A DNA stretch of 44,376 nt from a virus (IMGVR_UViG_2541047881_000004:1-44376); one strand, 5' to 3'; shown: positions 1-6,030, counted from the first letter of the stretch. A program made the numbers and translations. Notes: generated by a model not told the origin, from the letters alone.

Positions 1-906
1 GTGGATAGCGCACGCGCCCTTATTGCCCGGGGATGGGGAGTAAGCTTAGTCAGCCGTTGTCTCCGGGTGTCGCGTGCGCAGTTGCACGTAATTCTCAGAC
101 GAACCGATGACTGGAAAGATGGTCGCCGCAGCCGTCACTCAGATGATACGGATGTGCTTCTCCGTATACACCATGTTATCGGAGAGCTGCCCACGTATGG
201 TTATCGTCGGGTATGGGCGCTGCTTCGCAGACAGGCCGAACTTGATGGTATGCCTGCGATCAATGCCAAACGTGTTTACCGGATCATGCGCCAGAATGCG
301 CTGTTGCTTGAGCGAAAAACCGCTGTACCGCCATCGAAACGGGCACATACTGGCAAAGTGGCCGTGAAAGAAAGCAATCAACGATGGTGCTCTGACGGGT
401 TCGAGTTCCGCTGTGATAACGGAGAAAAACTGCGAGTCACGTTCGCGCTGGACTGCTGTGACCGTGAGGCACTGCACTGGGCAGTCACTACGGGCGGCTT
501 CGACAGTGAAACAGTACAGGACGTAATGCTGGGAGCGGTGGAACGCCGCTTCGGCAACGAGCTTCCGGCGTCTCCAGTAGAGTGGCTGACGGATAATGGT
601 TCATGCTACCGGGCTAATGAAACACGGCAGTTTGCCCGGATGTTGGGGCTTGAACCGAAGAACACGGCGGTGCGGAGTCCGGAGAGTAACGGCATAGCAG
701 AGAGCTTCGTGAAAACGATAAAGCGTGACTACATCAGTATCATGCCTAAACCAGACGGGTTAACGGCAGCAAAGAACCTTGCAGAGGCGTTCGAGCATTA
801 TAACGAATGGCATCCGCATAGTGCACTGGGTTATCGCTCGCCACGGGAATATCTGCGGCAGCAGGCCAGTAATGGGTTAAGTGATAACAGGTGTCTGGAA
901 ATATAG
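1..906 (+). CDS. insD: IS2 transposase OrfB (InsD), 5' end lies outside the window
   Basis: 301-aa ORF from the track; integrase-core transposase ending ...[31 protein letters not shown]. Confidence 0.9.
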
Positions 907-1710: not shown

Positions 1711-1989
1711 TCATTCAATACTCGCACTAAAGTCCACCATCCAGCCGCAGCAAGTTCTTGCATACGACGTGTCTGCGGTTTTATATAATCCCAGCCGGTC
1801 CAGTTTCCAGACAATCAACTCATCTCCACTTTTCATCACCGTAATTAATTCCTTTAACACAGGGCGATTAGCTGTTCTGCCACTGGCATATTCTTCATAA
1901 ATTCGCTCACAGCCAGCTGACTCAAGTGCAAGACGTTGCAACTCTGTATCCTGATGATTTGTTGATACACGAACATACCCGTAAATCAT
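1711..1989 (-). pseudogene. pin: Truncated serine recombinase / DNA invertase (Pin/Gin/Hin family); only about the first 68 residues are invertase-like
   Basis: N-terminus MIYGYVRVSTNHQDTELQRLALESAGCE...DELIVWKLDRLG has the catalytic Ser motif of small invertases; similarity ends near nt 1786 and the ORF stops at 92 aa, so the C-terminal HTH domain is missing. Confidence 0.6.
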
Positions 1990-1994
1990 GAGTG

Positions 1995-2021
1995 CTTCTC
2001 CTGTTGTAAAAACAGGAGAAG
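1995..2021. repeat. 27-bp near-perfect palindrome CTTCTCCTGTTGTAAAAACAGGAGAAG directly upstream of the invertase start codon
   Basis: 13-bp arms with one mismatch around a central A; contains the AGGAG RBS of pin on the minus strand; candidate recombination site remnant or regulatory hairpin. Confidence 0.35.
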
Positions 2022-2056
2022 AGGCGAAATATCACCTGATTCAGAAAAATATTTGA

Positions 2057-2530
2057 AAGGTTGGTTTGGGAGAAACGATAAATAAAGCCTCCGGAGCTAT
2101 GCAGAAATCGGCTAATGGAGCTGATATTTCTGATGTATCAGCCTTCCGAAATGCGCTCCAGTTAGGGATCGCCGCAACACGAGATGTTGGAGCAGATAAT
2201 GCCTCGAAGTTACTGGATTTAGACAGCTTCAGGTCAATGATGTCAGGGAATGGCTACATCTACATTCCATGCATTGCGACGACAGGAAACCCGGTGAAAC
2301 TTATGTTGCAGTGGGGAACGGTGGCAACACAAAAGGGAGCTGATGCTGGATATGCCTTACCATTTGCTTTTCCCTATGCAGGCTTATTTGCGACCGGAAA
2401 CCGTGGAACATCTGGCTACAATGCCGCGATGAATGTGCGTATTGCCAGCAGAACGCATATCAGTATTCAGAACTGGTCGCCATCCGGAGAGGGCACCGAA
2501 GATTGTTGTTTTATCGCGCTGGGGTATTAA
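2057..2530 (+). other. Alternative side-tail-fibre C-terminal cassette, promoterless and oriented opposite to stf
   Basis: ORF 2066..2530; like stf it ends in ...GY and shows loose similarity to the stf C-terminal region; upstream in-frame stop at 2054-2056; arrangement typical of Mu G / e14 P invertible segments. Confidence 0.55.
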
Positions 2531-2532
2531 GA

Positions 2533-2943
2533 ATGAATAAATTTTATAAAGGCTCTTTCTATCCGAAAGCACTAAAAGAGGTATATATCAGCGCCGGTTC
2601 ATGGCCTGAAAATGGCGTTGATGTTGATGATGAAACAATGGCAATTTACACAGGCGTAGCGCCACAAGGCAAAACGCTGGGGGCTGATAAAAATGGTAAT
2701 CCTGCGTGGATTGATATCCCGCCACTCTCCGCTGAACAACAGATTATTCAGGCTGAACAGAAAAGAACGGTATTGCGTTCTATGGCTGATAAGGAAATAG
2801 CCTGGAGACAGGATGCTTTTGATGCGGAAATCGCGACGGCAGAAGAAACCGCCGCGTTATCTGAATGGAAAAAATACCGGGTCTTGCTGATGCGCGTTGA
2901 TACAGCAAAACCCGTATGGCCTGTCAATCCGCAGGATATTTAA
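2533..2943 (+). CDS. tfa: Tail fibre assembly chaperone (Tfa) belonging to the alternative cassette
   Basis: 136 aa from ATG 2533; C-terminus ...[27 protein letters not shown] matches the conserved Tfa C-terminal motif (lambda Tfa ...[22 protein letters not shown]...WP). Confidence 0.7.
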   Translation: [136 protein letters not shown]

Positions 2944-3157
2944 CGGGGGCGTTGTAGGTGGTGACATATTCAAGCAGTTCTGTTGGATATGTCACCGTTG
3001 CTGCATCTCGCTCTACGTTAAATGTATCCGCTCCCCAGATAACACACTCCCTCAAAAATGCCTCCACCTCTGGCGAGACTTCAACCGCATCATCAGGTCG
3101 CTCTTGTTCAGAAACATAAAAACCAACGGTCGTTGGGCTGAAATACATATTCTCCAT
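2924..3157 (-). CDS. Short Tfa-like ORF directly downstream of stf; probably a truncated tail fibre assembly gene
   Basis: 77 aa, MENMYFSPTTVGFYVSEQERPDDAVEVSPE... resembles the N-terminal motif of small Tfa chaperones, but the conserved C-terminal region is absent; its 3' end overlaps the 3' end of the plus-strand tfa. Confidence 0.4.
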   Translation of the reverse strand: MENMYFSPTTVGFYVSEQERPDDAVEVSPEVEAFLRECVIWGADTFNVERDAATVTYPTELLEYVTTYNAPVKYPAD

Positions 3158-3159
3158 AT

Positions 3160-6030
3160 TTAGTATCCTATTGCTTCAAAATGCAAAGTCGGAATTTCGC
3201 CGAGATTGGGTGTCGTATACGACACAGTGAATCGCGTTCTTGATACGTCAGTGCCAGAATCAGTATCGCGATGCGTTGCCAGTGATTTCCCAGCCATTGA
3301 TGACTGGGTCGAAAAGCTGTAACTCGCTAGTGTTGCCAGCGTTGCTATTTGTGCATTTGGGAATTGTCTGGGGAAATTAACCCTGTAGTAATGGGTGTAG
3401 TACAGCACTCCACCAAGAGTAATTGCGTTGAAATTACCAACAGGCGTCAGTGTCACAGTACCAACCTGTCGAATCATACCATTTGGGAGAATATCCCAGG
3501 CAGTTTGTCCGTTTCGCGACATACCAAATGCGGACATGTCCGGGAGTTGATTATTACCGGTTCCGACATTACGTTTTGCCGCTTCTCCCAATTGAAGGTA
3601 TGCGAGAAGACCAGCTACATCCTTTCCACTCAAATTAGTCAGCGTATTGTCCAGCGGTTGTTTGCCCGCCAGTGCGCTCTGTACTTCGCTTTTGCTGTAG
3701 GCATCCAGATCTTTAGGCGTAAGCGTAATATCCTTCGTGCCGTCAAACGGAACGCCGTTGATATTCCGTGCAGTCTGTAGTTTTGTGGCAGTTGCAGCAT
3801 TACCAGTGGTGTTCTGATTACCCGTAGTGTTTACACCTGGAAGGTTAATATTTGCAGAACCGTCGAAAACAACTCCACCGATAGATCTTGCCGTCTGCAA
3901 TTTCGTGGCTGTAGCAGCATTTCCTGAAAGACTTGAAATAAATGGATGTGAACAGTAATAACCTCGTCCATTTTTAAAGTCCAAAATTATCTGTGCATTC
4001 GTACTTTCTGATAAAGGATCAGTTGCCCCCCACTTATAAGTGGTTTGACCAACTGCATAATCAGCCGTTGGAACAATCACATTTAATCCTTCCTCAGCAA
4101 AAATATGGATAGGGAATGCTCTTGTCTCAACGTAAAATACACTACACAAATCATCATCTTTCACGCTTGCGATAATCGAGTGTATAGCTCGCTCAGCAGT
4201 AGAATATATTGAGAAAAAACCAGCCGCATATGAATCGCGATCAGACCAACCGCCAGGCATAACAAACCCATTAAATTCACAATTATTCATGGCGTATCCG
4301 CCAGCTGAGGAATAAGTGGTGATAACCACTCGTGAGGCTAATTCATCTGCGCCACCACCAGTTCGGCGAAAGACTACAGGATACCACTTACCGCTTACTG
4401 CATTTGCAGGAGCAGAGAAAGTGTATTTTCGCATCCCCTTTTTCTTATCCACTTCACCTTTGCTGTAAACATTAATGTTACTCAGGAAGCGGCCCTTGTC
4501 TGGGATATCAGCGCCATTCTGATTCTTCGCCAATCGGCTATTCGCATTGTCATTCGCAGCTTTAACTGCCTTTGGAGTTGCGGCCAGCGATTCACTGGTG
4601 CTATCAACAGCACTGCTAAGTTTCACAACACCTTTAGTTGTAAGGCTTGCGTCTTCCATCGCAACTGCACCGGCAATCTCTTCAGCACGATCAGCAGCAG
4701 CTTCCGCACGGGTCGCAGCGGATTCAGCAGCAGTTTTGCTCTGAGATGCTGCCGTCGCACTGCCTGCCGCCTCTGTTGCTTTCGTGGATGCCGTCGTGGC
4801 GCTGCCCTTCGCTGCTGACGCCTGTCTGGTCGCCTCATCTTTTGAAGCAGACGCAGATGATGCCGATGACGCTGCCGAACTGGCGGACGATGCGGCTGCC
4901 GTTTTTGAGGATTCTGCACGGGTTTCCGACGCTTTCGCATTCGTTTCGGATGTCTTCGCTGTGGAAGCAGACCTCGCTGCTGCGCTGGCCTGTACAGCGG
5001 CTTCGCCAGCCTTCGTTGTGGCTGTTGAAGCGGACGATGCAGCACTTTCTGCCGATTTTCCGGCGGCGGTGGCACTGGCTGAGGCCTGCCCGGCACTTGT
5101 TGACGCGGCACTGGCAGACGACGCAGCCGCTGTTTTTGAGCCTGCCGCAGCTGAGGCACTCTGTCCCGCTGCCGTTTCAGAAGCCTTGGCGTTCGTCTCG
5201 GACGTTTTTGCCGCCTTCGCAGAATTTGCTGTCGCCGTTGCCGAGGAAGCTGCGCTGCTGGCGCTCGAGGCTGCGCTCGTTTCTGATGATTTTGCCGCCT
5301 CTTTTGAAGCCGACGCATCCCGGGCTGAGGTGGCAGCTTCTGACGCTTTCGTGGTTGCGGTGGATGCTGAAGTGGCTGCTGATTGTTGTGACGCTGCCGC
5401 ATTCGTTTCTGACGTTTTTGCCGCAGCGGCACTGGTGGCCGCCGCGCTTTTTGAGGACTCTGCAGCGGCAGCACTTTTTGATGCTTCAGTGGCCTTTGCT
5501 GATGCCGTTCCTGCGCTGGAAGACGCTGACTGAGCCGACGAAGCGGCCTGTCCGGCTGACGTGCTGGCTGCGCGTGCTGAGCCTGCAGCATCAGTCGCAT
5601 GGGTTGCCGCCTCACGGGCAGATGTGCCGGCATCGCCGGCTGACTTCTTCGCGGCTGCCGTGTTCTGTGCCACTGCGGACGCGTTACGCGCCACCTCTTC
5701 CACCATCAGTTCAAAACGGCGCAGTGCCTCTGGCCGGACATCATCCTCCGTCATTGCACCGAGGAAATCATTCAGTGTGCCCGGCTTTGAGTCCTCATAT
5801 ACGGTGATAATCCCGGCGTGTGACGGCGGGAATCCCTCCACCAACAGACTGACGCTGTACTGACCATACTCGACGTCCATTGTGTAACGCCCGGCTTCAT
5901 CCGGGTTTTCTGAGGCCACTGTGTTCACCACCACCGTGGTGCTGTTGCGCCTGGCCTTTAGCTGAATGGTGCAGTTTTGTATCGGCTTACCTGCGCCATC
6001 TTTCAGTACACCTGAAATCCGTACTGCCAT
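3160..6030 (-). CDS. stf: Side tail fibre protein Stf with long Ala/Ser/Thr-rich repeat region
   Basis: 956 aa; N-terminus MAVRISGVLKDGAGKPIQNCTIQLKARRNSTTVVVNTV... close to lambda Stf; internal low-complexity repeats (AKTSETNAKASET..., TSAGQASSA...). Confidence 0.9.
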   Translation of the reverse strand: MAVRISGVLKDGAGKPIQNCTIQLKARRNSTTVVVNTVASENPDEAGRYTMDVEYGQYSVSLLVEGFPPSHAGIITVYEDSKPGTLNDFLGAMTEDDVRPEALRRFELMVEEVARNASAVAQNTAAAKKSAGDAGTSAREAATHATDAAGSARAASTSAGQAASSAQSASSSAGTASAKATEASKSAAAAESSKSAAATSAAAAKTSETNAAASQQSAATSASTATTKASEAATSARDASASKEAAKSSETSAASSASSAASSATATANSAKAAKTSETNAKASETAAGQSASAAAGSKTAAASSASAASTSAGQASASATAAGKSAESAASSASTATTKAGEAAVQASAAARSASTAKTSETNAKASETRAESSKTAAASSASSAASSASSASASKDEATRQASAAKGSATTASTKATEAAGSATAASQSKTAAESAATRAEAAADRAEEIAGAVAMEDASLTTKGVVKLSSAVDSTSESLAATPKAVKAANDNANSRLAKNQNGADIPDKGRFLSNINVYSKGEVDKKKGMRKYTFSAPANAVSGKWYPVVFRRTGGGADELASRVVITTYSSAGGYAMNNCEFNGFVMPGGWSDRDSYAAGFFSIYSTAERAIHSIIASVKDDDLCSVFYVETRAFPIHIFAEEGLNVIVPTADYAVGQTTYKWGATDPLSESTNAQIILDFKNGRGYYCSHPFISSLSGNAATATKLQTARSIGGVVFDGSANINLPGVNTTGNQNTTGNAATATKLQTARNINGVPFDGTKDITLTPKDLDAYSKSEVQSALAGKQPLDNTLTNLSGKDVAGLLAYLQLGEAAKRNVGTGNNQLPDMSAFGMSRNGQTAWDILPNGMIRQVGTVTLTPVGNFNAITLGGVLYYTHYYRVNFPRQFPNAQIATLATLASYSFSTQSSMAGKSLATHRDTDSGTDVSRTRFTVSYTTPNLGEIPTLHFEAIGY

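Follow-up and report, generated by a model that had tools for sequence, protein, structure and literature searches.

DNA invertases set how often phages and prophages switch the host range of their tail fibres. The switch must be rare, and the control that keeps invertase levels low is poorly documented outside Hin. The locus described here raises this problem in the form of a single element: in a viral sequence of 44,376 nucleotides (IMGVR_UViG_2541047881_000004, hereafter the window, by which the whole analysed stretch is meant), a near-perfect palindrome lies directly upstream of the truncated invertase gene pin, and the question is what this palindrome does, or did. A sequence-only reading of the window had offered a remnant of an inversion crossover site as one answer, and a hairpin or operator controlling pin expression as the other.

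The palindrome occupies positions 1995-2021 and reads CTTCTCCTGTTGTAAAAACAGGAGAAG on the (+) strand. On the (-) strand, from which pin is read, it runs into the start codon as CTTCTCCTGTT-TTTAC-AACAGGAGAAG-CACTC-ATG. Its initial description as two 13-bp arms with one mismatch is valid, with a central A between 13-nt arms, though a better one, returned by a repeat finder, is a pair of perfectly complementary 11-nt arms (1995-2005 and 2011-2021) set 5 nt apart. The AGGAG of pin does lie inside the palindrome, as had been proposed, at 2002..1998 (-) in the 3' arm, while the gap between palindrome and pin ATG, previously given as 6 nt, is in fact 5 nt (1990-1994). Among the 14 short-range inverted repeats of the 44-kb window this is the sole one with 100% complementarity; simple arithmetic predicts ~0.06 perfect inverted repeats of at least 11 bp with loops of 3-8 nt in a random 44 kb. 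With as many as 3 mismatches permitted, the window contains a single match to the pattern TTCTCCTGTT-N5-AACAGGAGAA, against an expectation of 0 from 100 shuffles. The window leader is identical to the pinL leader of phage phi80. In the phi80 record (NC_021190) the same 11+11-nt inverted repeat, immediately before pinL, bears the label 'IR3', to which no function is attached.

The gene downstream is a remnant. Its reading frame covers only positions 1-76 of the 145 in the Pfam Resolvase profile and lacks the helix-turn-helix (HTH) domain, the resolvase-like part being confined to residues 2-67, whereas the intact homologue in E. coli CT02 has 187 aa with both Resolvase and HTH_7; its earlier designation as a truncated invertase is therefore correct. 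Homology to pin stops after codon ~67 (about 1789; window ~1705-1790), and the stretch 1705-1787 is 80-87% identical to one in lambda, HK97 and Stx phages that is mostly unannotated and sometimes labelled 'hypothetical protein'. Phage phi458, 99.8% identical to the window in this region, and E. coli EM06-18-14 share the deletion junction, and the invertible tail-fibre segment is thus frozen in these genomes. Because pin is truncated, the element in this window is a fossil, a recently orphaned relic ahead of a pseudogene; with pin dead and the tail-fibre segment frozen, it is of no consequence here. On the far side of the remnant, window positions 1-906 (+) encode a full-length IS2 transposase TnpB (NCBIfam PRK09409, 706 bits, 301 aa), this IS2 copy lying ~0.8 kb from the pin remnant; the ORF at 881-1477 had no match in Pfam or NCBIfam. 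Coordinates of the features discussed are collected in Table 1.

Table 1. Features of the pin leader, the pin remnant and the adjoining invertible segment, in window coordinates.
Feature	Position	Strand	Basis or remark
Truncated pin ORF, 92 aa	1711..1989	-	Pfam PF00239, E = 1.3e-18
pin start codon ATG	1987..1989	-	translation MIYGYVRVSTNHQ... aligns with phi80 PinL and other invertases
Palindrome / leader hairpin 2	1995..2021	-	RNA CUUCUCCUGUU-UUUAC-AACAGGAGAAG; 11-bp stem, 5-nt loop
3' arm AACAGGAGAAG, holding the Shine-Dalgarno	1995..2005	-	fold and sequence
Shine-Dalgarno AGGAG of pin	1998..2002	-	wholly in stem; 8 nt before ATG
Hairpin loop UUUAC	2006..2010	-	variable among relatives
5' arm, anti-SD, RNA CUUCUCCUGUU	2011..2021	-	non-coding, without Shine-Dalgarno
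Leader hairpin 1, AGGUGA-UAUU-UCGCCU (core GGYGA-N4-UCGCC)	2022..2037	-	fold; abuts palindrome
pin-proximal crossover site, 26 bp, TTCTCCCAAACC-AA-CCTTTCAAATAT	2049-2074, core 2061-2062	-	genuine hix/gix-like site
Distal crossover site in stf, TTCTCCCAATTG-AA-GGTATGCGAGAA	3583-3608, core 3595-3596	+	inverted partner
Invertible segment, ~1.5 kb	2063..3594		stf'/tfa' and tfa/stf cassettes
Silent stf' C-terminus	2066-2530	+	in invertible segment
tfa'	2533-2943	+	in invertible segment
Active tfa	2924-3157	-	in invertible segment
Active stf C-terminus	3160-3594	-	in invertible segment

The distribution of the palindrome ties it closely to the invertase gene. Its core, TTCTCCTGTT-N5-AACAGGAGAA, was found in 89 IMG/VR contigs, once in each and always in one orientation, and in every one of them it ends 6-7 nt upstream of the ATG that opens MIYGY(A/V)RVSTNHQ, the start of a phi80-PinL-type invertase. 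Such exclusive linkage to the invertase ATG indicates that the palindrome is part of the leader of this gene and not a dispersed operator. When the palindrome was not required, the scan added only one viral contig, in which the 5' arm differs by one T-to-C change. Among species-representative genomes the element was present in Trabulsiella, Kluyvera, Pseudocitrobacter, Shimwellia and Apirhabdus, upstream of an invertase 87-88% identical to PinL, and its two leader types, A and B, together occurred in 162 of 5426 complete E. coli genomes.

Within this range the arms hardly change. Across 25 leader haplotypes, drawn from Escherichia and the five genera just named, both 10-nt arm cores are invariant bar one singleton; that sequence aside, 10 of the 11 positions of the 5' arm do not vary. 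The loop appears as TTTAC, TTCAT, TTCAC or TTTAT (3 of its 5 positions vary), and most positions of the 5-6-nt spacer and most of the 40 nt upstream are variable as well. A metagenome scan anchored on the coding sequence alone, in which the palindrome was not a requirement, yielded 59 loci and only one further arm variant, a G-to-A change. The conservation of the 5' arm calls for an explanation, since this arm neither codes for protein nor contains the Shine-Dalgarno (SD) sequence. The palindrome is real, non-random and functionally constrained in its clade. One metagenome locus (L216, PPYF01298480.1) encodes a pin relative of 121 aa with an internal deletion; in its leader a G-to-A change leaves the palindrome mismatched in the 5' arm, and hairpin 1 is fully Watson-Crick (GGUGA/UCACC).

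The sites at which inversion would take place can be located elsewhere (Table 1). The proximal site shares its reading frame with the ..VGLGE.. motif in the silent C-terminus of stf'. When the DNA between both AA cores was inverted in silico, stf continued in frame into the silent C-terminal cassette (..LAYLGLGETINKA..), and the resulting Stf has 967 aa, as against 956 aa in the present orientation. Pfam matches in the invertible segment were to Gp53-like_C and Caudo_TAP. Similarity among related loci ends exactly at the proximal site, with the AA core (2061/2062) as the breakpoint; the palindrome, 27 bp away from this real site, falls in the constant stretch that separates it from the ATG. 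In a group of related IMG/VR loci (L007-L086, ~1430-1450 per locus), an identical pin and leader run into a wide variety of inner half-sites and flanks (..GCCGCTTCTCCCAAACC, ..GAGCCTTCTCCCAAACC and ..CCCATCTTAAAGC among them), a diversity which, judged from these sequences, suggests active inversion among several cassettes, in a multi-inversion or shufflon-like manner, in intact relatives. Inside the segment, just past the tfa' stop and within the convergent tfa, a 14-nt inverted repeat (2960-2973 and 2983-2996; 93% complementary, 9-nt gap) may be a bidirectional stop signal between the cassettes, or may be due to chance.

With these sites in hand, the proposal that the palindrome is a crossover remnant, a former pix site decaying beside its gene, becomes very improbable. 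It does adjoin the invertase gene, as the hix, gix, cix and pix sites of Hin, Gin, Cin and Pin may lead one to expect, and it has the hexamer TTCTCC in common with the real sites of this window: the outer 6 nt of each arm are those with which the half-sites TTCTCCCAAACC and TTCTCCCAATTG end on their outer side. The likeness goes no further, the inner 6 nt of each arm (TGTTKT) failing to match the corresponding CAAACC of the half-sites. The genuine sites form an inverted pair that bounds the invertible DNA and lies inside the tail-fibre reading frame, whereas the palindrome is unique and non-coding. Its odd length had already been remarked upon as atypical, and rightly so: it is 27 bp long, or 25 bp between its TTCTCC ends, and has a single central base, as against hix sites of 26 bp (PMC3798978) built from 12-bp half-sites around a 2-bp core. 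The partner copy that might have been expected in stf is missing, with no second copy anywhere in the window at up to 3 mismatches. True sites that function in silico have been identified, the homology breakpoints fall on them and not in the palindrome, and a decaying site would not stay invariant across six genera while its flanks vary. The palindrome is not a recombination site and should be annotated as a 5'-leader structure.

As RNA, the leader folds strongly. The (-) strand transcript of 1960-2080 has a predicted energy of -29.3 kcal/mol (z = -4.05; 0 of 200 shuffles as good), and the hairpin alone accounts for -14.9 kcal/mol in type A leaders and -15.4 in type B. The pin SD lies within a stable local stem near the start codon, an arrangement expected of an SD-sequestering leader. 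The cost of exposing it was expressed as an opening energy, the free energy needed to make positions -16 to +3 single-stranded in a context of -60 to +40. For pin this amounts to 18.6 kcal/mol, whereas 47 other long ORFs of the window have a median of 7.5 and reach at most 13.75. From related phage contigs (L102-L186), 342 non-redundant ORFs that carry SD-like motifs served as controls and gave a median of 6.9, a 95th percentile of 12.0 and a 99th percentile of 15.1; against this set the median of the palindrome-bearing leaders, 17.9, falls at the 99.7th percentile. Other carriers of the palindrome ranged from 16.1 to 18.4 and the metagenome variants from 18.5 to 21.8. In the sister clade of invertases that begin MIIGY... 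(72-74% identity), the palindrome is absent and opening energies are ordinary, at 5-10 kcal/mol; the feature is thus specific to its clade and not essential to invertases. On the accepted thermodynamic view of translation initiation (PMC3936740), the additional ~11 kcal/mol of unfolding would, as a rough estimate, place initiation about two orders of magnitude below that of a typical gene with the same SD. A stem of -15 kcal/mol over an SD appears almost too strong, which suggests either a mechanism that opens it or extremely low expression.

Whether selection acts on this symmetry as RNA or as DNA is a separate matter, and the stem itself varies too little to be very informative. In the stem alignment 98.7% of cells are paired and 9 of 12 pairs never vary; there are two single-sequence mismatches, and measures based on pair counts did not beat their shuffle controls, little variation being available. 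Covariation is weak: the one compensatory change, at the closing pair, runs from C-G in type A to U-A in type B, the latter in three haplotypes of one lineage. L233, a hybrid of types B and A, has U.G at this position, which favours RNA because that pair is legal only in the pin-sense transcript. Hairpin 1, the smaller stem that abuts the palindrome, behaves similarly: its pair 29-38 (alignment A2) is C-G in 17 haplotypes, U-G in 8 and U-A in L216, a wobble series that fits sense-strand RNA because the antisense would carry A.C. The stem of hairpin 1 is weakened in L058/L089, L205, L223 and L255, and is absent in L234.

A further locus, L212, offers a different kind of comparison. It encodes a full-length invertase of 183 aa, 84% identical to PinL and with the same type of crossover site, yet its leader is non-homologous. 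There the SD (AAGGAG) lies in the 3' arm of a ~10-bp stem, ACAUCACU(U)CC/GGAGUGAUGU, the arms of which do without TTCTCC outer ends; the opening energy is 13.2 and the fold z is -2.65. L212 is a single sequence, and a search of IMG/VR for more leaders of its type found none. The motif of the window, in turn, occurs once per phage genome and only at the invertase gene, unlike typical sets of operators. Taken from sequence comparison, the closing pair of L233, the wobble series of hairpin 1, the leader of L212 and the single occurrence favour a structure in pin-sense RNA, while the invariance of the arms and their symmetric change would also fit a dimeric DNA-binding protein.

We judge that the palindrome is probably an SD-sequestering leader hairpin which would throttle the translation of Pin. 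Of the two controlling devices put forward by the sequence-only reading, the hairpin is retained as the best reading, on the strength of position, stability, conservation and the leader of L212, and the operator becomes the less likely of the pair. The palindrome would reflect, at the level of DNA, a stem-loop that forms in the 5' leader of mRNA for phi80-PinL-type invertases. In the (-) strand transcript the 5' arm CUUCUCCUGUU would pair with the 3' arm AACAGGAGAAG, burying a near-consensus and well-spaced SD in a stem of 11 bp that stops 5 nt short of the AUG. In any transcript that includes position 2021 the 27-nt hairpin would form immediately on synthesis, and the 30S subunit would bind only in the rare unfolded state, so that very little Pin would be produced whatever the source of the transcript. 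This reading assumes both arms to be present in the natural mRNA; the hairpin would lower translation in vivo, and this effect would be what selection maintains.

The transcripts themselves may start at a weak promoter that neighbours or overlaps the crossover site, or arise by read-through of the co-directional tail-fibre operon. Consensus scans of the (-) strand near pin gave no good sigma-70 match, only weak and non-conserved candidates, and a scan of the same strand from tfa to pin gave no strong terminator; read-through into pin is possible for these two reasons. A large part of pin transcription may indeed be read-through, to which the stem would render Pin output insensitive. The expected outcome would be a low frequency of inversion and a safe level of a DNA-cutting enzyme. 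An SD-masking stem, if true, would be a simple post-transcriptional answer to the problem of invertase level for the phi80-PinL clade, and the native leader would be expected to suppress translation wherever such invertases are expressed or built into synthetic inversion switches.

The symmetry of the arms can also be read at the level of DNA, as an operator at which a dimeric protein, most plausibly Pin itself, would bind the double strand; we hold this to be unlikely. The operator would be a pseudo-recombination or accessory site, with 25 bp between its TTCTCC ends in place of 26, and its occupation would block pin transcription in a form of autoregulation. Arrangements of this kind are familiar from the res subsites of gamma-delta and Tn3, where inverted half-sites at non-standard spacing (25 bp in site III) keep tnpR repressed; for Hin, autoregulation by way of hixR is reported. 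In keeping with such a site, both arms start with TTCTCC when read inward, in the same orientation as in TTCTCCCAAACC and TTCTCCCAATTG, both are invariant in sequence, and the one change seen is symmetric. The inner TGTTKT, however, does not match the CAAACC of the half-sites, with its A-tract and CC, and puts G.C where an A.T minor-groove contact, as in Hin-hix, is expected. L212, of the same clade and crossover type, still masks its SD with an unrelated stem devoid of TTCTCC, the U.G pair of L233 and the wobble series of hairpin 1 point to RNA, and the motif is confined to one copy per phage genome.

An RNA structure with some other primary role, whether a 5'-terminal stem-loop that stabilises pin mRNA or a pause or barrier against late tail-fibre transcription, seems to us just as unlikely as the operator. 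Such roles would suit a stable hairpin reached by read-through in a region that lacks a strong (-) strand terminator between tfa and pin, and a weak -10-like hexamer (GATATT, GATACT or GACATT) in hairpin 1, ~7 nt before the stem, would place the stem near a 5' end. That hexamer is not conserved, being GATCTC in some haplotypes, and the stem is followed by a U-tract on neither strand, so it is not an intrinsic terminator. A stem that contains the SD would, moreover, block initiation in any case, so that these roles would add to SD sequestration without replacing it. Extensions of the hairpin reading are quite unlikely too. The stem may serve a dual use, with a 25-bp pseudo-site for Pin superimposed on it as an autoregulatory site distinct from the crossover site and comparable to a res accessory subsite; it may be gated, some factor or event opening it and thereby licensing tail-fibre inversion at a particular stage only; or, in the broadest version, masking of the initiation region may be a general and unremarked design rule of phage DNA-invertase genes.

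Several other candidates were considered and set aside. A rho-independent terminator is contradicted by the tails of the stem, CACTCATG (-) and AGGCGAAA (+), neither of which is a U-tract, and by scans that were negative on both strands. As a LexA (SOS) box the palindrome is one base short, its CTGT-N7-ACAG departing from the consensus spacing CTGT-N8-ACAG. Searches for an Rfam 15 family returned only noise (mir-3179 at 14.6 bits and E = 6.3, where the threshold is 90). A leader peptide or N-terminal extension was rejected on frame: in type B leaders a GUG/AUG in hairpin 1 is in frame with pin, but in type A and other leaders the difference between 5- and 6-nt spacers shifts the frame. An antisense promoter, TTGATA-16-AATCAT at 1962-1989 (+), matches at 9 of 12 positions, no better than chance, which predicts 3.3 such matches per region, and relatives differ in its -35 at synonymous positions; the sequence lies within the first pin codons and is directed away from the gene, and an RNA from it would start at the palindrome. 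An upstream 'hairpin 0' (CTGAATCAG or CCTGATAACCAGG) has registers that differ between haplotypes, and a riboswitch-like toggle, in which the anti-SD arm would pair with an upstream CAGGYG, is not conserved.

SD sequestration in a leader is a known kind of control, although for this invertase clade we found no earlier description; a full-text literature search returned nothing on invertase leader hairpins, or on autoregulation of Gin, Hin, Cin or Pin, relevant to this element. The closest experimentally established analogue is the leader of IS200 tnpA, in which an inverted repeat sequesters a near-perfect SD, blocks the 30S subunit and represses translation, a repression that keeps transposition rare (PMC4513863). 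In both systems a strong SD would be masked in a leader stem and a potentially harmful recombinase kept scarce. The IS200 stem is much longer (nt 69-138) and has no sequence similarity to the pin leader, and IS200 also employs Hfq, the antisense sRNA art200 and a terminator further upstream, to which no counterpart was found for pin. The IS200 effect is experimental, whereas that of pin is predicted from sequence.

Two further systems share parts of the proposed scheme. Fold-back inhibition of read-through transcripts was reportedly described for IS10/Tn10 by Davis, Simons and Kleckner in 1985. There, a sequence upstream pairs with the ribosome-binding site in transcripts that enter from outside, so that these do not raise recombinase synthesis, and the element's own promoter starts between the arms, leaving its own mRNA free of the structure. 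The likeness lies in the position of pin, which follows the late tail-fibre operon in the same direction with no strong terminator in between. The pin loop differs in that it has 5 nt and no -10 fits in it, and pin's own transcripts would probably be masked too. In phage Mu, the translation initiation region of mom is likewise locked in a stem-loop, which Com opens by binding beside the stem. For pin, no activator is known or indicated.

Occluded ribosome sites may extend to other invertases. Opening energies were 12.2 for Mu gin, 11.5 for P88, 10.8 for P1 cin, 10.0 for pro483 and 9.8 for mEpX1; the MIIGY clade spanned 5.1-10.4, and a Yersinia phage hin gave 6.2. Values in a P2-like family from IMG/VR, with the leader GGCAUCAUCYCC-loop-GGGGGAUGMUC-AUG, were mostly 10-18. 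When summarised by their medians, 16 invertase leader types exceeded the 342 control ORFs in opening energy (Mann-Whitney p = 1e-4), a trend and not proof, as the boundaries between types were drawn by eye and certain types are related; nine of the 16 lie above the 89th percentile of the controls and five are ordinary. These modelled energies suggest that ribosome sites are occluded in several invertase lineages and that the solution may recur.

For the gin/P2-type leaders, RNAalifold gave only an invariant GGCAU:AUGCU pairing that involves the start codon, with no covariation. Leaders of this type (L278-L335, L191 and L195) carry an invariant TGGCAT(C/G)AT ~31 nt upstream of the start. The motif is complementary to the start region AUGCU, GUG starts keeping a U.G pair, and it also resembles an extended -10 (TGnCATCAT). 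If it is a -10, only read-through transcripts could fold back over the start, by analogy with IS10.
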